Origin: a virus
Lineage: Duplodnaviria > Caudoviricetes
DNA: 64,000 nucleotides
Virus record (IMG/VR): IMGVR_UViG_3300032221_000294
Span: 1-64,000 of that record
Direction: 5' to 3' (one strand)
The translations under genes and the position numbers were made by a program. The notes beneath the pieces are model-generated. The model was given only the letters and a program-made list of their open reading frames with translations, had not been told where the DNA came from and did no database searches. Shown here piece by piece: positions 4,705-57,240 of the stretch. Every line of letters starts with the position of its first letter. The first letter of the stretch is position 1.

Positions 4705-5784
4705 TTAACCGATTGCAGGAGCAGTCAGGGCCACAGGGGTTGAAGTGGCAGAAGCCAGGTCTAGAGGGAAGTTGTGGGCATTCCTCTCGTGCATGACTTC
4801 TATTCCGAGGTTGGCACCGTTCAAGATGTCGGCCCAGGTCTTGATAACGTGGCCTTGATTGTCTAGAATTGACTGATTAAAATTCCAGCCGTTAAGATTA
4901 AACGCCATCGTGCTTACGCCCATTGCGGCGAACCAGATTCCTACCACCGGCCAAGCAGCCAGGAAGAAGTGGAGTGAACGCGAGTTATTGAAGCTAGCGT
5001 ACTGGAAAATCAATCGCCCGAAATACCCATGAGCTGCAACAATATTGTATGTCTCTTCTTCTTGACCAAACTTATAACCGTAGTTTTGTGACTCGGTTTC
5101 GGTAGTCTCGCGAACCAGCGAACTGGTTACGAGCGAGCCGTGCATCGCAGAGAAGAGTGAACCACCGAAGACACCAGCCACTGCGATTTGGTGGAATGGG
5201 TGCATCAGAATGTTGTGCTCAGCTTGGAAAACCAACATATAGTTGAACGTTCCTGAAATCCCCAGAGGCATCGCATCGGAGAAAGAACCTTGACCGAAAG
5301 GGTAGACCAAGAATACGGCACTCGCAGCAGCAACAGGTGCGCTGTAAGCAACACAGATCCAGGGGCGCATTCCCAAGCGGTAGGAAAGTTCCCACTCACG
5401 TCCCATATAGGCGTAGATACCGATCAGGAAGTGAAAGACAACGAGTTGAAAGGGGCCTCCGTTGTATAGCCATTCGTCTAGGCTTGCGGCTTCCCAAATA
5501 GGATAGAAATGCAGGCCAATAGCATTAGAGCTGGGAACAACTGCACCAGAGATAATGTTGTTACCGTAAAGGAGTGATCCGGCAACAGGCTCGCGAATTC
5601 CATCGATGTCAACGGGAGGGGCGGCAATAAAGGCAACAATAAAGCAGATTGTTGCGGCAAGCAACGTTGGAATCATGAGGGTACCAAACCAGCCGACATA
5701 AAGGCGGTTGTTGGTGGAGGTTACCCACTCGCAGAAGTCATTCCAGACGTTGTTACTGGAACGGGTTAAAACAGATGAAGACAT
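4705..5784 (-). CDS. psbA: Photosystem II D1 protein
   Basis: [54 protein letters not shown]. Has E130 (MGREW) and no intron. Confidence 0.99.
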
Positions 5785-5856: not shown

Positions 5857-5884
5857 ATTTTACCCGAGAGTTACAAAAGTAAAC
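5857..5884 (-). promoter_or_regulatory. Composite psbA promoter (GTTTAC-N16-TAAAAT overlapping GGGTAAAA)
   Basis: GTTTAC 5879-5884, TAAAAT 5857-5862, GGGTAAAA 5858-5865. Confidence 0.6.
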
Positions 5885-6419: not shown

Positions 6420-6689
6420 TTAGTTATTCTCAGGTTTCGTAAACTTAAGGTCTACTTTACCGGTTTCGTTGATAAAATTTACCTTCCCTTCGGTGAAATG
6501 GATCCACTTCTTTAACTCTAGCGTGTATGTTCGTAGAACTTCCGCCTGCGCTAAGTGCCAAGGGTCGTATGTTTTCAGATATAGACGCATGTGCTCATCG
6601 ACTGCCTTCAGGCAGTGCTTAATTACCGGGTTCCAGGGTTCGCGAACTGGTGTATTCCAGGTGCGTCTTTCTTCACTAGTCCTTTCCAT
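6420..6689 (-). CDS. Cyanophage hypothetical protein
   Basis: WNTPVREPWNPVI..CL..D.H pattern typical of small cyanophage proteins. Confidence 0.65.
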   Translation of the reverse strand: MERTSEERRTWNTPVREPWNPVIKHCLKAVDEHMRLYLKTYDPWHLAQAEVLRTYTLELKKWIHFTEGKVNFINETGKVDLKFTKPENN

Positions 6690-6714: not shown

Positions 6715-6867
6715 TTAGTGGGCCATCAATGCGTACACTTCCTCAGTCGTCAGTCCGCCAGACTGAAGAACCGCCTGCAGGATTTCCTCCGCTCTCTCCT
6801 CTGCTTCGTCAGTTCCTTTTCGGACGAGTTCTTTCCGTTGAATCATCCTCTTTAAGTTTTCGCTCAT
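6715..6867 (-). CDS. 50-aa helical protein coupled to kinase (candidate immunity)
   Basis: ATGA overlap with the kinase stop; MSENLKRMIQRKELVRKGTDEAEERAEEILQAVLQSGGLTTEEVYALMAH. Confidence 0.65.
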   Translation of the reverse strand: MSENLKRMIQRKELVRKGTDEAEERAEEILQAVLQSGGLTTEEVYALMAH

Positions 6868-7688
6868 TGTAATCTACCAAGTTCTTGAATGTAATCTTCC
6901 CCCAGACGGGCTCTTTTGTTTTTCGCTGCTTGACTGGTTCCTTGAATTTCCCCGTATTTGTCAAGGTAGCGATTCACCAAACCAACGTAGGGATCATTCG
7001 CAAGTTCAGGGTTTTTCCAGTTAACCAGGCCTCCGATCTTGGCCAGATCTTGCATGACTCGAGCTGGCTGCCGAGAGGTAGGAACACTCAGACCGTAATC
7101 TACGAGCTGAACATTGTTGCCACTCACAATGAACTGGAGGGCGTGAAGATCACCGTGAGCGTAACCCAACTTGTGCAGGTCACGAATCGCCGCCGCCGCT
7201 TTCTTCGCCTGGGAAGCATTCATGACAGGCTCACCTTCCCCTCGAGAGTAACCTGCCCACAGAGTTTTTCCTTTGGCCGTTGCCATCTCGATGTGCTCGG
7301 CGGAACTAGAATAGATCTTCGGACTATGCCCTAGCTGACCCATTCGGGTGGCTAATTCCAGCTCAAACTCCCCAAATTCCCCCTTCTTCCCATCTTTTCC
7401 AACCAGCAATTCTTTAACAACACGCTTGCCGTCTGGACTGATTGAAATTTTTCCGTAGTTACCTTGATTGATTGGTTTCCACTTGTCGTATCCTACTTTA
7501 GTCGAGGAATTTTCGAATGTTCGACGATTTCTATCATACGCCTTCGACATTCTGTCCAGGAGCTCCGCCGTCTTGCTAAGCTGCCCCGAAGACAAAAAAG
7601 CGACCCGACAAGACCGCTGAGAGGCGATACAAGTCGAGCCGCAACTTTTTCCGCGAACGCAACGTTTTTTACTCCCGGCTTTGCGCAT
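6864..7688 (-). CDS. Ser/Thr-type protein kinase with N-terminal 4-Cys tag
   Basis: QGNYGKI, VVKE, HGDLH, VDYG; tag CVRGKSCGSTCIASQRSC. Start placed at ATG 7688, downstream of GGGTAAAA 7710-7717. Confidence 0.8.
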   Translation of the reverse strand: MRKAGSKKRCVRGKSCGSTCIASQRSCRVAFLSSGQLSKTAELLDRMSKAYDRNRRTFENSSTKVGYDKWKPINQGNYGKISISPDGKRVVKELLVGKDGKKGEFGEFELELATRMGQLGHSPKIYSSSAEHIEMATAKGKTLWAGYSRGEGEPVMNASQAKKAAAAIRDLHKLGYAHGDLHALQFIVSGNNVQLVDYGLSVPTSRQPARVMQDLAKIGGLVNWKNPELANDPYVGLVNRYLDKYGEIQGTSQAAKNKRARLGEDYIQELGRLQ

Positions 7689-7711
7689 CAGGTTTGTACA
7701 TCTGAGTGGTT

Positions 7712-8443
7712 TTACCCGTAGCTCGCAATAATACCCCAACCTGTTCCGTCGCCCTCTACCGTCCACCGCGACTTGAGAAGGTCGCGACTGTACTTTACGC
7801 GATTGCCATTTGTTGAAAGGTAGGTGCCGGTGGCATTGTTAATCTCCCCCCATGGATCGTTCACCACATACCAAGAACCACCAGGCGCTTTCGTGTCAAC
7901 TTCCTTACCGATTACAATGATCCAATGCCCTCCACCAGAAGGTGCGGTGCTTGGTCCTTTGTGCAGTATACCAACAGGAACTGGAATTCCACGGGCTAGC
8001 AGAGAGTCTAACGTTGAAAAAGTGAGGCTAGTGGAAAATCGTGAACTGACACCAAAGTGCTTTAGTGTTTGAACTTGAACAGCAGCATCCGTGGTGTCGC
8101 CACGCTTGAATACTTCCCTGATGTAATCATCGTCGCTTTTTATCGAGGTGGGTTTTAGAAACTTGCACAGCATCGCGCATGACGAGCTGAAGCATGTGCG
8201 TGAAGCGTCCCGGTAGTTGTCCCGTTGTGAGTAGTAGGGAACGTTGAGAACGGATGGTACGCCAGGGGCGTTTGTGTAAGGGGCTCGGTGAATTCGCACC
8301 CAATTAGCTTCGTCGGTTAATAACTCAGGCTTGATTGCTAGAATTTCTTTATACAAGTCAGCATAAGCGGCCCGGTGCTTAGGGTTAGCTGGGTCAGCGA
8401 ATTGGGCAAAGTCAAAGAACTTTTTGGAGTCGAAAGTCGCCAT
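7712..8443 (-). CDS. C39-like cysteine peptidase, probable endolysin
   Basis: LNVPYYSQRDN...CFSSSCAM, GGGHWIIVIG, VVNDPWG. Confidence 0.8.
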   Translation of the reverse strand: MATFDSKKFFDFAQFADPANPKHRAAYADLYKEILAIKPELLTDEANWVRIHRAPYTNAPGVPSVLNVPYYSQRDNYRDASRTCFSSSCAMLCKFLKPTSIKSDDDYIREVFKRGDTTDAAVQVQTLKHFGVSSRFSTSLTFSTLDSLLARGIPVPVGILHKGPSTAPSGGGHWIIVIGKEVDTKAPGGSWYVVNDPWGEINNATGTYLSTNGNRVKYSRDLLKSRWTVEGDGTGWGIIASYG

Positions 8444-8703: not shown

Positions 8704-8883
8704 TTACCCCTTCGACTGGTAAACTCGGCCCATAAGCTCCTCACCAAATACCCGAAGATCCTGGTTTTTCTCCATGTTGCCAGCCATGATTGCCATGCGG
8801 CCAACTTCCCCAGGACCATCGGTTTTCATTGCTTCCTGAACGAATGGGTCGGCGAGGAAGTCTTTGATCGTCTGTTTGTTCAT
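8704..8883 (-). CDS. 59-aa protein coupled to tagged protein (candidate immunity)
   Basis: ATGA overlap; MNKQTIKDFLADPFVQEAMKTDGPGEVGRMAIMAGNMEKNQDLRVFGEELMGRVYQSKG. Confidence 0.6.
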   Translation of the reverse strand: MNKQTIKDFLADPFVQEAMKTDGPGEVGRMAIMAGNMEKNQDLRVFGEELMGRVYQSKG

Positions 8884-9776
8884 AAGAAAATGTCACCTGC
8901 GTTTACAAATACCGAATGGGATGCGTCAAGGAGTTTGTCAAATCCCGGGGTCGCTTCCATTTCTCTGTATTTAGTTATAAATTTCTTAACATCTGGGGCA
9001 TTCACGCCACTGTCAGTGTCTGCATAGTACAGGTTCTTGACTGGTTTTGGTATGTCCCCACGGCTTAACATAAACCCAATGTCGCGAGAGAAATACATTG
9101 ATAGATCCCTGTCTGTAAGGGTAGAGTTATCCCCCCTCGCTTTTAGGGCTGCCGCCCTATGAACCATGTTCACCAGAGTTTCTTCGGCAACAGTTGGACT
9201 TTTCGGGCCTTCACCAATCCAGTTCCCGATTTTATCGTCCCCCCCTAAGAATTCATGAACGAGGGCATGTACATTGTCGTGACTCCAGCTTAAGGTATGG
9301 GGGGTTGCTTCAAGGCCCGCTTTCTTTCGCCACGATTCTGCTTTTTTCTCTACTTCGTATATGTCAACGTTCTTGCCGGCCATGACGAGGTCTTTTGACT
9401 TCGCCCCCTTGTCTTCAACGGGTTTCGTCTCCTCCGTCCCTTTACGACACTTGCCTCCGGTACCATACGCAGTTCCGTTCGGTCGTACACATCGTGTAAA
9501 GTCAAGCGTTTCACTATAGCTAACTGTTTGCTGTGGCTGCGCCGGTTGCTGAGTGCACTTAGGTTTCTTCAGCTTTTGTTGTTGCTGTTGGAGTTGAGGG
9601 TCCGGCTGCGAAGCCTGTACCACCTTGGGTTGCGGAGGCTGAGGTGGCTGCGGGGGTGGTTTGGGCTGCGGGGGTGGCTTGGGCGGGCATGGCTCTGCTG
9701 CCGCCTGCCCTGGCTCTGCGTAGAGCATGGACGAAACTGCGTCAAGCGCCTCTTGAGAGAATCCAGAGATGTTCAT
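8880..9776 (-). CDS. Tagged modular protein (GFS.EAL leader, P/Q linker, DFTRC..YGTGGKCRKG tag, HDxxH domain)
   Basis: Motifs shared with 10099..10992, 53119..53841 and 54660..55355. Confidence 0.75.
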   Translation of the reverse strand: MNISGFSQEALDAVSSMLYAEPGQAAAEPCPPKPPPQPKPPPQPPQPPQPKVVQASQPDPQLQQQQQKLKKPKCTQQPAQPQQTVSYSETLDFTRCVRPNGTAYGTGGKCRKGTEETKPVEDKGAKSKDLVMAGKNVDIYEVEKKAESWRKKAGLEATPHTLSWSHDNVHALVHEFLGGDDKIGNWIGEGPKSPTVAEETLVNMVHRAAALKARGDNSTLTDRDLSMYFSRDIGFMLSRGDIPKPVKNLYYADTDSGVNAPDVKKFITKYREMEATPGFDKLLDASHSVFVNAGDIFL

Positions 9777-47403: not shown

Positions 47404-47451
47404 TTGCTAAGGAGCGAGTTGTGACGCGTAACGACGCTTCTACCTTTTACC

Positions 47452-47613
47452 CTAAAGGTAGGCTCCGCCGATAATCGCGTCTTCGCTCACTTCACCCTTC
47501 TCTCGCAGCTTCATGGCCGCTTCAAGATACAGGTCTGCCTTTTCGCCCAGCTCCTGCCTGCGCTCCTTGTAACGTGACATCAGAGCGATGTACTTCTCGT
47601 CGTGTTTACTCAT
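47452..47613 (-). CDS. 53-aa helical protein coupled to kinase (candidate immunity)
   Basis: TGATG overlap; MSKHDEKYIALMSRYKERRQELGEKADLYLEAAMKLREKGEVSEDAIIGGAYL. Confidence 0.65.
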   Translation of the reverse strand: MSKHDEKYIALMSRYKERRQELGEKADLYLEAAMKLREKGEVSEDAIIGGAYL

Positions 47614-49502
47614 CAAACCCCCTCGTAAAGAATCGAGATGTACTTTTGAGCCTGTTCATTAGTTAGTTTAGTCCAGACCCCCTGCTCGTAAGTCTCCATT
47701 GGCGAACGAATTCCGTGATCCATCACCGTGGCAATGTCGTCTTTGGAGAAACCATCCCGAAGCATCGCGAATTGAACGTCAGCTTTGTTTTGTTGAACTC
47801 TGGCGAGAACGGGAGCTTTTTCTTCGAGGTCTTTTCGTGCCCTTTCTGTTGACACGGGTAGAGCACCAGATTTCAATCTTGACTCGTAAATTTCGAGGAG
47901 TCGGCCAGCCGTCCCATCCCATCGACGAAGTTGCCAGTCTCCTTGTCCCGCAGCACCCATACCTCTTGTTGCCGAACCACCTTGTGGAGGCATAAACACA
48001 CCCATCGCTTCGGCCAAAGCGGCTTTTGGCGAGTCTTGAGCAAGACCCATGTCAACGAAACGGGCTTTACCTTTGCGGTCTACAAGAACGTTGTCGATGT
48101 GCATATCATTGTGAGCGATGCCCATCCGGTGAAGTTTTGCCCTAGCAACCCAATATGCGTCGGCAACTTTGACTCCGCCGATTTCTTTGTCGGGTGCTTT
48201 TGAACCGATAGGGCTTCCTGCAACCACGCTCATCGCCACGCGACCAATTTTCGTACCGGCGTTATACTGCGAGTCACCGTCAAGTTGAGCAGCAAGAAGT
48301 TTTGGCCCAAGGTCAACTTTTCCAAGACGGTCAATCAAGTCGGCTTCAATTTTACCGACTTCGCCCCTCTTGATGGCGTTTCCTTTGTTTGGCTCACGAA
48401 GAACGGTCCCGTAAGCACCTCTTCCGAGAAGTTTTGACCCCGACCCATAGGAATCTTCCCAGCGGTAAGACTTGCTTCCGAGCTCACGGGAAATCCCTTT
48501 GTTTATCATGTCACCGTCATGATCGCGAGCGTCTTCACGAGCGTAACGAACGTTTCCAGTTGCTTTTGTTTGTGGGCCTTTAATCGCCTCTTCCACAACT
48601 TTGAGCCGATCAACCAGCTTGTTGCGAAGCGCACCCGGTTTTACCTTTTGAACTTGCGATTTTAAGTTATTCCGCAAATTCCAGGCTTCTCCGAGAAGTC
48701 CCTCTAAGTCACGTCCAACTTCCCTACGAGTTAGAGCACCAAGTCCGAGAACGGATTGAAGCTGTGCGACTTGTGATTTGATTTTGACTCGCCCACTATT
48801 GTCGTCAATCATCGAGATATATCTCGGCGATTCGCCCTTCAAGAGGCGTGAAATATCATCCATTAAATCCTCGTCGGCCACTGTTCTCTTTACGGGGAGA
48901 ACCGTCCTTGTTCTTGCGCCTGGTGACTTATCAAGTTGCCGTGGTGGCAGAACTAACAAAGGCTTCTCGCTCGGGGTTTCTTTTCTGCGAGCTAACTCTC
49001 GGTCAATTCTATCTTTGGTATCCTGTAACACCTCCTTTTTCCCTGCCGGTGCTACTGAGAGACCTTTTCGGAATTTAACAAGAGCACTCGTATCCCATGC
49101 TCCGTACAGCTCGTCGGGTTGATTTTTTGCGTCGACAGTGGGTTTTTCAAAGGCTCGTTTAAATACATCCCCTAAGTTTGTTTCCGCCTTCGGTGCAGCG
49201 GCACCCCTTGCCGGTATAACACCAGCAGCAACTAAACGTCGTTTCAGTTCCCGTGCATCCTCGCCTGCGCGAATGTTCCTGCCAAGTTCCTGACGAAATT
49301 CCTTCTTGATTTTTTCAAATTGGGCGGCGCCACCGCGCTTTCCGCCCGCAGCAGCGGCTCGGTAGAGTTCAACAACCCCCACCTCATCTGAGGCTTTATT
49401 GAGAATGTTATTTACAGCTGTAGGGAAGTTAAGTCGGCAAGATTTTGCATTGCTGATGCAACCAGCCCCACACGCTTTACTGCGGCTGCACCTTTTTCTC
49501 AC
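47613..49502 (-). CDS. 4-Cys-tagged protein with C-terminal Ser/Thr-type kinase
   Basis: CSRSKACGAGCISNAKSC; LGRGAYGTV, AIKR, HNDMHIDN, VDMG. Confidence 0.85.
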   Translation of the reverse strand: MRKRCSRSKACGAGCISNAKSCRLNFPTAVNNILNKASDEVGVVELYRAAAAGGKRGGAAQFEKIKKEFRQELGRNIRAGEDARELKRRLVAAGVIPARGAAAPKAETNLGDVFKRAFEKPTVDAKNQPDELYGAWDTSALVKFRKGLSVAPAGKKEVLQDTKDRIDRELARRKETPSEKPLLVLPPRQLDKSPGARTRTVLPVKRTVADEDLMDDISRLLKGESPRYISMIDDNSGRVKIKSQVAQLQSVLGLGALTRREVGRDLEGLLGEAWNLRNNLKSQVQKVKPGALRNKLVDRLKVVEEAIKGPQTKATGNVRYAREDARDHDGDMINKGISRELGSKSYRWEDSYGSGSKLLGRGAYGTVLREPNKGNAIKRGEVGKIEADLIDRLGKVDLGPKLLAAQLDGDSQYNAGTKIGRVAMSVVAGSPIGSKAPDKEIGGVKVADAYWVARAKLHRMGIAHNDMHIDNVLVDRKGKARFVDMGLAQDSPKAALAEAMGVFMPPQGGSATRGMGAAGQGDWQLRRWDGTAGRLLEIYESRLKSGALPVSTERARKDLEEKAPVLARVQQNKADVQFAMLRDGFSKDDIATVMDHGIRSPMETYEQGVWTKLTNEQAQKYISILYEGV

Positions 49503-50011
49503 TTTGCGCTCTCCCGGTACTCTTGAAGTTTGGCTTCGAGCTCAGCGATACGGGATCCGACGGACTGAATATGCTCGGAATAGGAATCATCCTGGTTCAT
49601 AGTCCGATTGTAATCATCCATTTGCTTACGGCCAAGATCAAGAGTGGAAAGCTTCGCGTCGAGAGCTTCTTTCGCTTTAATCAGGTCGTGCATTTGCTTC
49701 ATCTGGGCTTGCAGACCTTTGAAATTTCCACGCATACGGGAGGTGCGCATCTCGTCTTGAAGCGAGTCAATGCGCATATCAAGCGATTTCTCTTGCTCAG
49801 CAAGGCTATCGTATTCCCCACCGTCACGAACGTTTTCGGGGAGAATCTCGCCAAAGCGAGAGTTGATCACAGACGTGTTCTCGGGCTCCATAACGGTTCC
49901 CCGAGCGTAATCTGTCGGTGTGTGGGAGTAATCAAGGATCTGATGCCCCCGCTCCGAATAAATTAAATAGGCTTGTTCGATAGCCTTTTCTGAAATGGAG
50001 TCTTTCCGCAT
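49499..50011 (-). CDS. Coiled-coil late protein (YSE motifs)
   Basis: GGGTAAAA at 50036-50043. Confidence 0.65.
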   Translation of the reverse strand: MRKDSISEKAIEQAYLIYSERGHQILDYSHTPTDYARGTVMEPENTSVINSRFGEILPENVRDGGEYDSLAEQEKSLDMRIDSLQDEMRTSRMRGNFKGLQAQMKQMHDLIKAKEALDAKLSTLDLGRKQMDDYNRTMNQDDSYSEHIQSVGSRIAELEAKLQEYRESAK

Positions 50012-50042
50012 GTCGAAAAGGAGACTTATACGTGATTTTACC

Positions 50043-50561
50043 CTATCTTGTGCCCTCTAGGGTCTTGCGGCCGATCTCGTTGATGGCCTGTTGCCGAGCC
50101 GAGCCGCTGGCATTTGGATTCGCTAAGGCCGCTGCTGATTGAGCAGGGGCTGCTGGTTGAACGTTTTTCGGTCGTGGCGATTGACTTGGTTTTACGGGTT
50201 TTGGACCCACTTTCTTTTCACCGGCGACTGAACCCCATTCAACAAGAACGGGTTTGCCACCTTTTACGGCCCAACCCATCCGCTTGCCGTTCACCATTAC
50301 GGGTTTGTTGCTCTTAACGTCCGAGCCCTGCTTCTTGGCTTCAGCTTCACCCGCTTCCTCTTGTTTGGTTTTCTTGCTGGAGTCGAAGTCCTTTTCACCG
50401 GTGCCGCCGCCAACTTTGCGGCAGACGCCGAATACCATCTTCTCGCCTTCTCCACAGCCTTGGCCGTCAGCGAAGTTCCAGTCGATAATTGTGTAGTGAA
50501 CACCTTCAATGAGGTGGTCAACTGAGGGAAAATTGAAATTGCTTTGCATGGGGATCACCAC
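50043..50561 (-). CDS. Basic late protein (FAD...C...GVCRK)
   Basis: Two-Cys module reminiscent of the YGTGGKCRK tag. Confidence 0.65.
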   Translation of the reverse strand: MVIPMQSNFNFPSVDHLIEGVHYTIIDWNFADGQGCGEGEKMVFGVCRKVGGGTGEKDFDSSKKTKQEEAGEAEAKKQGSDVKSNKPVMVNGKRMGWAVKGGKPVLVEWGSVAGEKKVGPKPVKPSQSPRPKNVQPAAPAQSAAALANPNASGSARQQAINEIGRKTLEGTR

Positions 50562-54659: not shown

Positions 54660-55355
54660 TCAGAGTTTTCCTATTTGCCATTTAATACCGACGTCACTAG
54701 TCCACGGATGCACGACTGTATATCCGTCTTTGGTTTTCTTTACTTGAAAATTATCGCCTCCTTGCTTCTTATTAAGAGCGTTAGCAAGCTCTTGAGCTTT
54801 GTTTTTGGGGAAAATTAAAGAATCGGACGAACGCTCTGACGAAGTTCCTTTTGAACTCTTCTGTCCCTTACCCGCAAGCTGAGCCAGAGCATTTTTAGCA
54901 TAGCGGGAAAAGGAACCTTTGGCCCCATCTTCTTGATAACGATCTGAAGCATTATCGAGAGCACTAACGAGTTTTTGTTTTTGTTCGGGGTTTAATTTTA
55001 GGCCCAGTGCTTTTTCTAACTTGGGTGCGAGTGTCTCCCCGGCATACCCAGGGGTGGAATCTGACTCTCCGTCCTCAAAGGCCATAAACGCTTTGTCCCA
55101 AGCCTTATACAAACCATCTACGATTTTGGCAGCATCTTTCTTTGGTCCACCCGACGCTCTCTTCGCTTTTTCTTCAATTTCTTTAGCGCCTTCCGTGCCC
55201 TTTCGGCATTTACCCCCAGTGCCATACGCCGACCCGTCGGGTCTCACGCAACGGGTGAAGTCGTAGGTATATCCTTCAGAGAAATCCGCAGCTTGAGTCT
55301 GAGCCGCAAGTTCTGCGAAGTGACGCAAAGCGTCTTCAGAAAAATGACCGTTCAT
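54660..55355 (-). CDS. Tagged modular protein (GHFSEDAL...DFSE..YDFTRC..YGTGGKCRKG)
   Basis: Start placed at MNGHFSED, 21 nt after GGGTAAAA 55377-55384. Confidence 0.8.
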   Translation of the reverse strand: MNGHFSEDALRHFAELAAQTQAADFSEGYTYDFTRCVRPDGSAYGTGGKCRKGTEGAKEIEEKAKRASGGPKKDAAKIVDGLYKAWDKAFMAFEDGESDSTPGYAGETLAPKLEKALGLKLNPEQKQKLVSALDNASDRYQEDGAKGSFSRYAKNALAQLAGKGQKSSKGTSSERSSDSLIFPKNKAQELANALNKKQGGDNFQVKKTKDGYTVVHPWTSDVGIKWQIGKL

Positions 55356-55392
55356 GGCTGTAAAATAATATACAAGTTTTACCCCCTTGGTG

Positions 55393-57240
55393 TTACAAAT
55401 CTGCGATTTGTTGAAGTACCTCGTCTTGAATGTCTTTGATCTTCGGCGCAAGGAAATCAATTAACCCTGTCCTCGTTGAATACTGCGTTTCTCGAACTCT
55501 ATTTCCTTTGTATTTTTCTTCGTTTAAGTCGAGAAGTTTCCTCTGAGCCCCGCTCAAAATTGAGCCCATCTTCATCAAACCCCCGTTATCTCCCTTTTCC
55601 TGGAGCTCAGCGACTTTATCCGCTAGAGCTTTACCGACGGACGCGCCTCCTACATCTTTTCCGTACCAGTACAGAGGTTTGGGCACAGAACGTAAACTCC
55701 CCTCCTTGGCTGACTGGATTCCAATAGCAACGGTTCGTGACGAATCTGTCCACGCGGAGACAACTTTACCCATTAGATTTGCCCGGTCTCCCGCGTTAAG
55801 CTCATTAGTGGGGATAAGGGCAATAGACGCTAACGCTTTTTGAGGATCTAGAATCTTGTCTAAGATGTCATCCCCGATTGTTTTCTTTGCTGAGTTTATT
55901 TCTTCCCGTTTTTCGTGGAAAAGTTTACCGTCTTCCGTGAGTTTTCCGTTTCCGTCAAAAGTTATCATCCGTGGCTTACCCGAGGTCTTTGAGGTGTTGG
56001 TGTTGAACCAACCTGCGGTGTTAGTTGTTAGCAGGTAATCCGGACTGCCTTCCCCTTTCCCTCGGTTTATTCGAGAGTTTGTTAACGACCAGTTGTTCCC
56101 GATATTGGCATTTGCACCTGCGACCCCCGCTGGTATCAAGTGCTCTAAGTCCACGCTCAACAAATTCAGTTTCTCCCCCGTGTATACGTCCTTGAATCCT
56201 GACTCCATAGCGATCTTCATAATTAAGAAAGATTTTGCCTTATCCTCCTCTGCTTTTGACATCTTCTTCCCCGAGGGAATTACGTCTCCCTTCGGAGTTA
56301 CAGATCTGTAGGATCCAGGAATTTCTGAACTTCCCGCACTCTTCAGATAGGTGAAAACTTGGGGGGGCATCAGACCCATCATAAAATGGACCTCTGAGTC
56401 TTTGACGTCCTGATTTCTGTACCATTTTGCGAAAGGTTCTAGTGCCTTGGAAAATTCTTCAGGGTTCTTATATTTACCTGTCTTATAGTTGTCATAGACA
56501 CTCGTAAGTTCTTTAAATTTGTCTTGACGCTCTTTCGAGGCCATTCGTTCTATGCCCTCGTTAGAAACAACTGGGGCTACATCTTTCCTCCCGTATAAGA
56601 CGTCAAAAGCCTGACTCACCATGTCCCGCATTTTTTGCCTGCGCTCTTTAGGGTCGGGGTAATCTTTGGTTAAGCCGTTGATCCCCTCCCGAAGAAAAGA
56701 AGTCCTTTCTTTCAACTCAGTTTGAACTTTCCCCGTTCTAAATTCTTTTGGCAGGGTGTCTTCCGCCAGTTTTCCTTTCACAAGCGAGTTAGAGAAACCT
56801 GTGTATTGTTTAAATCGTTTTGCGGCTTCAGCGGTGGTCAAGTTTCCTTGAGCAATTTCTGATTTCAAGTAATTTCGTACTTTAGTGACTTCTCCTGAAA
56901 TTTCTGCAGGTAACTGCAGGATGCAGTCGTTGCGGTAGAAAATGCAGGAAGCCCCACAAGATTTACCTTTCTTACACCGGTCACGTTTTGCGGAGAAGCT
57001 TTTTCTTTGAGCTGCCGCATTCATTGCGCTCTCTTTCTTCGCTTCTGTGATCACTTTCTTTCCCCCGTCAGACGTCTTTTTAGGGGACCCACCTGTTTGA
57101 GGGGAAGCCGCTGGTTTACCGGGCAGAGGTGAAGATTCACCTACAATCCCTTGTCTTTGCCCAAGGCGCTCTACTTTTGCATCATCCCCTTGCATATTGC
57201 GGGAGTCTGCAAAATCAAACCAGCGATACTTACTTCCCAT
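55393..57240 (-). CDS. 4-Cys-tagged protein with HNH nuclease domain
   Basis: CKKGKSCGASCIFYRNDC; DVYTGE.L....DLEHLIP.......N...N....N..IN..KG. Confidence 0.75.
   Translation of the reverse strand: MGSKYRWFDFADSRNMQGDDAKVERLGQRQGIVGESSPLPGKPAASPQTGGSPKKTSDGGKKVITEAKKESAMNAAAQRKSFSAKRDRCKKGKSCGASCIFYRNDCILQLPAEISGEVTKVRNYLKSEIAQGNLTTAEAAKRFKQYTGFSNSLVKGKLAEDTLPKEFRTGKVQTELKERTSFLREGINGLTKDYPDPKERRQKMRDMVSQAFDVLYGRKDVAPVVSNEGIERMASKERQDKFKELTSVYDNYKTGKYKNPEEFSKALEPFAKWYRNQDVKDSEVHFMMGLMPPQVFTYLKSAGSSEIPGSYRSVTPKGDVIPSGKKMSKAEEDKAKSFLIMKIAMESGFKDVYTGEKLNLLSVDLEHLIPAGVAGANANIGNNWSLTNSRINRGKGEGSPDYLLTTNTAGWFNTNTSKTSGKPRMITFDGNGKLTEDGKLFHEKREEINSAKKTIGDDILDKILDPQKALASIALIPTNELNAGDRANLMGKVVSAWTDSSRTVAIGIQSAKEGSLRSVPKPLYWYGKDVGGASVGKALADKVAELQEKGDNGGLMKMGSILSGAQRKLLDLNEEKYKGNRVRETQYSTRTGLIDFLAPKIKDIQDEVLQQIADL

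Follow-up and report, generated by a model that had tools for sequence, protein, structure and literature searches.

Small proteins that inhibit a kinase by binding in its cleft are exemplified by p27Kip1, which acts on Cdk2–cyclin A and places a tyrosine in the ATP pocket, and by PKI, which acts on PKA. In the epsilon/zeta (PezA/PezT) systems, a kinase toxin is encoded beside a small helical antitoxin, which obstructs its ATP site sterically. For the virion-associated kinases of cyanophages, we know of no published partner protein. The MuF polymorphic toxins of temperate phages are head-associated proteins in which a common N-terminal module precedes a variable C-terminal enzyme, and a small protective gene lies downstream (PMC5576092). 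In the virion proteome of S-CREM2, the kinase ORF14 was represented by 21 peptides (PMC10665884), and the same paper cites earlier detections of virion kinases in S-CRM01, S-TIM5, and S-CBWM1.

We analyzed a stretch of 64,000 nucleotides (the window), which corresponds to positions 1 to 64,000 of the IMG/VR virus record IMGVR_UViG_3300032221_000294; the record is 99.5 kb long and is estimated to be 46% complete. The window derives from a cyanophage: it carries psbA at 4705-5784 and tail-fibre genes, and nearly all of its genes lie on the minus strand. It encodes two kinases (kinases A and B), each followed by an overlapping short gene (small A and small B).

The best-supported reading of kinase B and small B (pair B) is that of a particle-borne kinase with a co-translated plug for its active site. 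Such a plug would work in a manner resembling p27Kip1, PKI, and epsilon on zeta, and it belongs to none of these systems. Tyr52 of small B enters the ATP pocket in the model as the p27Kip1 tyrosine does, but p27Kip1 and PKI are eukaryotic, are not co-translated neighbors of their kinases, and have no sequence relation to small B. Zeta is a P-loop kinase, whereas the model of kinase B shows a protein-kinase-like fold nearest to RIO, APH, WaaP, and Bud32; kinase B carries K/HxD/DxG motifs and no Walker A, and no zeta was present among the fold matches listed. The gene order and the biology of epsilon/zeta (plasmid or chromosome stability) also differ from those of pair B. The MuF toxins carry a MuF module where the proteins described here carry a 4-Cys or a DFTRCV module, and the cargo of pair B is a kinase; the MuF partner is hypervariable, whereas small B is conserved and occurs in a lytic-type cyanophage. 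The small partner departs from toxin–immunity pairs at large, being conserved instead of co-diversifying, optional across kinase lineages, and probably packaged.

The two kinases and their surroundings

The features of the two units, in window coordinates, are as follows.

50036..50043, minus strand: GGGTAAAA just upstream of the gene for the 170-aa protein, at the start of the unit 170-aa protein–kinase B–small B
49499..50011, minus strand: gene for a 170-aa coiled-coil protein, first of the three-gene unit; its stop overlaps the start of kinase B (GTGA)
47613..49502, minus strand: kinase B, 629 aa: 4-Cys module at the N-terminus, then a variable linker, then an atypical protein-kinase-like domain (~300-629) at the C-terminus
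49437..49490, minus strand: 4-Cys module of kinase B (C-x6-C-x3-C-x7-C)
47452..47613, minus strand: small B, 53-aa gene, stop included, read from 47613 to 47452 (53 codons and TAG)
47445..47452, minus strand: GGGTAAAA overlapping the stop codon of small B, ~40 nt before a tail-fibre gene, marking the end of the unit
7710..7717, minus strand: GGGTAAAA ~22 nt ahead of the start codon (ATG, 7688) of kinase A
6864..7688, minus strand: kinase A, 274 aa when read from the ATG at 7688 (its frame is open upstream as far as a GTG at 7766), with a 4-Cys module and an atypical kinase domain
7608..7661, minus strand: 4-Cys module of kinase A
6715..6867, minus strand: small A, 50-aa gene, stop included, read from 6867 to 6715 (50 codons and a stop)

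The catalytic residues of kinase B are intact (K378, E386, H464-N-D466, N471, and D484), and the K, E, HxD, N, and DxG positions are invariant in 73 homologues. The model of the domain reached a pLDDT of 95.2, and its closest solved folds were near-tied: RIO2 (Z 10.6, rmsd 3.7 Å, 180 aligned), RIO1 (Z 10.3, rmsd 3.9 Å, 188 aligned), and APH(2'') (Z 10.1, rmsd 4.2 Å, 190 aligned), with WaaP, Bud32, and OspG as further matches. Pfam matches stayed below threshold and covered the catalytic loop only, and Foldseek matches to eukaryotic kinases covered the core only. Judged by motifs and model, kinase B is of an atypical protein-kinase-like fold and looks active. Its domain occurs in 470 representative clusters, always C-terminal behind variable N-termini. 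Kinase A shows the motifs HGDLHALQ and DYG, in which Gln replaces the loop Asn. Relatives of both kinases were found only in Synechococcus and cyanophage genomes. The virion-associated kinases of cyanophages (S-CRM01 g130, S-CREM2 ORF14, and those of S-TIM5 and S-CBWM1) are homologues of kinases A and B; these kinases have a CTS-like leader instead of the 4-Cys N-terminal module of the window kinases.

The 4-Cys module has the consensus R-C-x2-[GS]-K-[SA]-C-G-x2-C-I-x5-C in kinase A, kinase B, and an HNH-like protein of 615 aa (55393-57240), which holds the third copy at its residues 88-111 (56923-56976, minus strand). The module was also seen in many metagenomic kinase homologues and in S-CBWM1 gp162. 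A second N-terminal module, F-S-x2-A-L ... Y-D-F-T-R-C-V-[RK]-x-D-G-x2-Y-G-x2-G-x-C-[RK]-x-G (the DFTRCV module), heads several unrelated proteins; it lies within 8880-9776 and 54660-55460 (minus strand) in the window and occurs in four other loci (L013, L017, L019, and L022). In L013 and L022, the kinase domain follows the DFTRCV module in place of the 4-Cys module. Since one module replaces the other ahead of one kinase domain in related phages, the cargo proteins swap modules. At 8704-8883 (minus strand), a 59-aa ORF begins on the stop of the gene for the 298-aa DFTRCV-module protein (8880-9776), with 4 nt in common, and in L013 a 469-aa DFTRCV-module protein is followed by an overlapping 54-aa ORF (7215-7379). 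Further cargo proteins may also have small coupled partners.

GGGTAAAA occurs in 21 copies in the window (3642-58136; e.g. 5858-5865) against 2.7 expected, and 20 of the 21 copies are on the gene strand, in intergenic positions that directly precede gene starts. The motif probably serves as a phage promoter or as some other signal for the start of a unit. The kinase B unit adjoins tail-fibre genes. Homologues of the 170-aa protein precede kinases in two related loci (L061 and L093), but the protein is unrelated to the ~150-aa proteins upstream of the kinases of T4-like cyanophages; therefore, the conserved core consists of the kinase and the small gene only. The ~150-aa proteins share a conserved C-P-x-G-x2-W-[DN]-K ... 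C knuckle.

The two small genes

The ATG of small B starts at the A of the kinase B stop codon, so that the two genes have one base in common (TGATG). The 3' end of kinase B reads ...GAG GGG GTT TGA, and a GAGG is located 7 nt upstream of the small B start, within the last codons of the kinase. In related loci the junction is TGATG, TAATG, or TAGTG; the overlap and the GAGG are conserved, and TAC-GAG-GG forms at once the Y-E-G codons of the kinase and the ribosome-binding site. Small B has 22 close protein clusters of 69-94% identity and conserved length. Its dN/dS against diverged loci is 0.014-0.09. Small B is thus a real gene under strong purifying selection, and its placement with the TGATG overlap in the first-pass annotation is borne out by the 53 codons and TAG, the GAGG, the selection, and the homologues. 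The dN of small B was 0.14-0.16 and that of kinase B 0.68-0.77, that is, the kinase evolves about five times faster; small B holds 77% identity where the kinase drops to 34-43%.

Small A starts on the stop codon of kinase A through an ATGA overlap (kinase A ends ...CAA TGA). It has 11 close protein clusters of 70-92% identity and conserved length, and its pN of 0.13-0.23 against a pS of 0.76-0.95, with synonymous sites saturated, is indicative of strong purifying selection. The homologues overlap the kinase A homologue by 4 nt in 7 of 7 loci. Small A accompanies only the seven closest kinase A homologues (at least 53% identity), and none of 30 S-TIM5-like kinase A relatives has an adjacent partner. 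From these comparisons small A is a real, lineage-restricted gene, and the coordinates, the 11 clusters, and the selection uphold its earlier placement at 6715..6867 with the ATGA overlap. Modeled alone, it forms a compact, closed three-helix mini-domain (pLDDT 96.8) with no free tail. A Foldseek search with this model returned nothing meaningful, and only a sub-threshold weak likeness to the start of a DeoR-type HTH was found (E 0.035).

Neither small gene could be assigned to a family by Pfam and PHROGs searches, blastn of both kinase/small-gene regions against a phage collection gave no match, and the ESM Atlas held no look-alikes above 0.9 for the small proteins. The first-pass annotation had described the two peptides as mutually similar, which the comparisons do not support. 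hhalign of the small A family against the small B family gave a probability of 0.1-0.15% with narrow and wide profiles, BLASTP of one peptide against the other gave no alignment, and the wide small B family HMM scored 0-4 bits on small A, a level that shuffled sequences reach 4-18% of the time. The two peptides are thus without detectable homology, and small A was not placed in the small B family. Their common traits, namely size, helical character, a G-x-[VL]-[ST] turn, and a basic pair on helix 1, are no more than chance would give between short, charged proteins of helical build.

Downstream of small A lies a gene for an 89-aa protein (6420-6689, minus strand), a homologue of which is located directly upstream of a small-B/kinase pair in another locus (L090, 413-616). 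This protein tends to travel with these kinases.

The small B family and its linkage to kinase genes

A profile search extended the small B family to at least 264 clusters of cyanophage proteins, 52-80 aa in length. All of the 264 clusters are labelled hypothetical, none has a name or a Pfam domain, and a sequence search of the PDB found no relative. The core motif, D-x2-[YF]-x2-L-M-x2-Y-K-x2-R followed by a G-x-V-S turn and a C-terminal A-Y-L, is present in full in small B. Among cultured phages, five T4-like cyanophages (S-CRM01 with g129, S-CREM2 with ORF13, S-N03, S-B68, and MA01) encode after the large kinase a 74-80-aa 'hypothetical protein' that is a small B homologue with 38-42% identity. 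In S-CBWM1, the 64-aa gp114, which follows the RIO-like kinase gp113, is a member with 28% identity and the C-terminus RYI instead of AYL. These relatives agree with small B in the invariant motifs, in the aromatic-aliphatic C-terminus, and in the position beside the kinase. The T4-like relatives differ in an extra N-terminal leader (MKDLSKFLxE...), which the 53-aa small B lacks, and in a gap of 15-38 nt after the kinase, where small B overlaps the kinase instead. On these grounds small B is a member of an unnamed but widespread family of small cyanophage proteins.

Every small B family gene examined adjoins a kinase-B-type gene (15 of 15 IMG/VR loci, 5 of 5 distant loci, and 6 cultured phages). 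In all 15 IMG/VR loci the kinase B homologue is immediately upstream of the small B homologue, and the pairing persists in loci that lack the downstream tail-fibre gene and in which kinase identity is down to 34-43%. The 5 distant loci are arranged in the same way. Conversely, an adjacent family member was found at 41 of 57 kinase-B-type loci, counted from stop to stop so that ORFs overlapping the kinase end were included. In 32 of the 41 it follows the kinase on the same strand, in 7 it precedes the kinase on that strand at a distance of 10 nt, and in 2 the two genes converge. Since the pairing is kept through three gene orders, it points to function and not merely to a shared operon. The conservation of gene neighborhood, proposed as a check in the first-pass annotation, is therefore seen for both genes, in 7 of 7 loci for small A and in all loci found via the small gene for small B. 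In two distant phages, the small B family gene is on the strand opposite the kinase, tail-to-tail with a 700-aa-class kinase and with a 4-nt 3' overlap (L098, 2256-2522; L100, 2190-2351; minus strand of the loci).

When the kinases were grouped into lineages at 70% identity, 17 of 25 had an adjacent small B family member and 8 had none. The S-CBWM1 kinases gp161 and gp162 also lack an adjacent small partner. Because of these cases and of the 30 S-TIM5-like kinase A relatives mentioned above, a plug on the kinase is no general requirement. In records with a partner-less kinase, the family member is usually located beside another kinase paralogue. The IMG/VR records behind L078/L086/L087, L079/L088/L099, and L056/L072/L092 hold up to three diverged kinase B paralogues but only one or two small B family genes per contig. 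In one partner-less lineage (L085, L086, and L099), Phe replaces the catalytic Asp and Ala the loop Asn; this paralogue is probably a pseudokinase.

The predicted complex and the role of small B

The kinase B domain was modeled together with small B by a single predictor with our own alignments of 73 and 59 rows. The ipSAE values were 0.90, 0.89, and 0.89, compared with 0.00 for the highest-scoring of three controls. Among solved complexes, 58 of 80 attain this ipSAE mark, as do 2 of 110 mismatched pairs; the calibration is rough for runs with our own alignments. Contacts agreed to at least 80% between the runs, with a partner pLDDT of 86-88. In the model, small B forms a helical hairpin across the cleft of kinase B, and its invariant tail I-I-G-G-A-Y-L-COOH is predicted to enter the ATP pocket. 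Residues I47-L53 would lie between the glycine loop, A376/K378, the gatekeeper M424, the hinge, and V483/D484, with Tyr52 among V367, A376, K378, M424, V483, and D484. The invariant K16 is placed on the DFG aspartate D484 and the invariant R19 on the catalytic D466. The tightest predicted contacts, in domain numbering, are R19-D167, K16-D185, and Y52-K79/A77/V68/M125. The confident interface holds 7 of 15 conserved positions of the small B family (K16, R19, L30, A33, A51, Y52, and L53). The invariant Ser43 is positioned away from the active site and is absent from the confident contacts. When partnered and partner-less kinases were compared at the interface, most contacts were catalytic residues conserved in both groups. 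If the model is correct, small B evolves about five times more slowly than the kinase because its invariant residues contact invariant catalytic residues.

The complex model supports, without demonstrating, the binding of small B to kinase B. The first-pass annotation had regarded the small proteins as cognate kinase inhibitors. For pair B only, and in silico, this agrees with the linkage, the detection of the family member ORF13 in virions, the ipSAE of 0.89 against 0.00 for the best control, and the filling of the cleft. We lean, with some reserve, towards the reading that small B is the dedicated, co-translated partner of kinase B that holds it off; small A probably does likewise with kinase A, as judged from its position and selection. 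Small B would be made from the kinase B message by translational coupling, its start overlapping the stop and its ribosome-binding site residing in the last codons of the kinase. Kinase B would be held off by the hairpin over its cleft, by the tail occupying the ATP pocket, and by the pairing of K16 and R19 with the two aspartates. As one of the virion-associated kinases of cyanophages, kinase B would be a late product that is taken up into particles for use in the following infection, and the plug would most likely silence it in the producing cell and during assembly. The activity would return once ejection parts the two proteins, either through dilution or because the plug is lost.

The fate of the partner bears on this reading. 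In the S-CREM2 virion proteome, the small B homologue ORF13 was detected by 1 peptide (11.5% coverage), and ORF12 and ORF15, which flank the pair, were likewise found (PMC10665884); a member of the small B family is thus translated and present in virions. The T4 prohead protease cuts after L/I-x-E, and in the 10-residue capsid-targeting sequence of T4, residues 8 and 10 determine processing (PMC9026906). The T4-like relatives of small B begin with MK-x-L-x-x-F-L-x-E, which places L-x-E at residues 8-10, and their kinases begin similarly. Considering the T4 cleavage rule, the relatives therefore look co-packaged with the kinase, and they are probably carried along with it instead of staying in the cell as protection. 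Small B of the window has no such leader and starts directly at the conserved core. In the T4-like cyanophages (L004, L006-L009, L032, and L035), the kinase, the small partner, and a large downstream protein, annotated as Cas9-like in S-CREM2, all have an N-proximal F-[LI]-x-E like the T4 prohead-protease sites.

Virion presence and a leader may fit a chaperone or a subunit as well as an off-switch. Small B could accordingly be a chaperone for packaging or folding, or else a small, stable subunit. It would bind the kinase to maintain its solubility or to bring it into the capsid, and would travel with it, the blocking of the cleft being incidental or absent. The binding in the complex model, the presence of ORF13 in virions with the kinase, the CTS-like leaders on the T4-like relatives of both proteins, and the fact that the neighbors ORF12 and ORF15 are virion proteins as well are all in line with this alternative. 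However, the predicted contacts center on the ATP pocket and two catalytic aspartates rather than on a surface for packaging, small B of the window is leaderless, and the virion presence of ORF13 rests on one peptide. We consider a chaperone or subunit unlikely, though worth keeping in mind.

The first-pass annotation had likened the two genes to toxin–immunity pairs. In an effector–immunity pair of the polymorphic-toxin sense, or in superinfection immunity, the small protein would shield infected or kin cells from kinases that other phage particles inject. The layout resembles that of polymorphic toxins in that one N-terminal module is common to different C-terminal enzymes: the 4-Cys module heads two kinases and the HNH protein, and the kinase domain stands behind the other module in related loci. 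The small gene directly follows the kinase gene, and MuF phage toxins with immunity genes provide a precedent (PMC5576092). Moreover, a protein aimed at invariant catalytic residues, as in the model, could neutralise diverged kinases. Immunity proteins, however, normally co-diversify fast, whereas no such co-diversification is seen here (dN 0.14-0.16 for small B vs 0.68-0.77 for the kinase), and many kinase paralogues are partner-less. With a partner so much more conserved than its kinase, not adjacent to it in about a third of the lineages, and in T4-like phages virion-borne with a leader, the toxin–immunity comparison fits poorly, and we regard this explanation as improbable.

Many kinases need small partner subunits, such as cyclins or Cgi121 for Bud32, and small B might be an activator, a regulatory subunit, or a substrate of kinase B. 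Binding is predicted and Ser43 is invariant; however, the modeled ATP pocket is filled, the catalytic Asp is capped by Arg19, and Ser43 is outside the active site and the confident contacts, which argues against a substrate role. An activating or substrate role therefore has little to recommend it. That the small genes are unrelated in function to the kinases and adjoin them through operon conservation only, for which the weak sub-threshold DeoR-type HTH likeness of small A (E 0.035) could be cited, is very improbable given an adjacency kept through three gene orders and across phage groups with differing other neighbors, and a complex model that passes against zero-scoring controls.

The preferred reading, that small B holds kinase B off, can be extended to the family, albeit speculatively. 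The small B family may, though we rate this as doubtful, be an unrecognised, broadly cross-reactive 'safety catch', in which one highly conserved ATP-site plug silences diverged kinase paralogues in the producing cell, is loaded into the capsid with the kinases, and may neutralise the kinases of superinfecting relatives. If so, it would represent a general timing lock for ejected phage effectors.

Kinases have repeatedly been found in cyanophage particles, and a plug would explain how an active, host-directed enzyme can be made late without harm to the phage's own production. The pair would also illustrate that an ORF too short for customary length cut-offs can supply the regulatory part of a two-gene module. 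The small B family would offer a compact (~50 aa) natural candidate kinase inhibitor with K16, R19, and Y52-L53 as the key residues proposed from the model. If the plug role is true, several hundred 'hypothetical' small proteins of marine and freshwater cyanophages would gain a name and a testable role.
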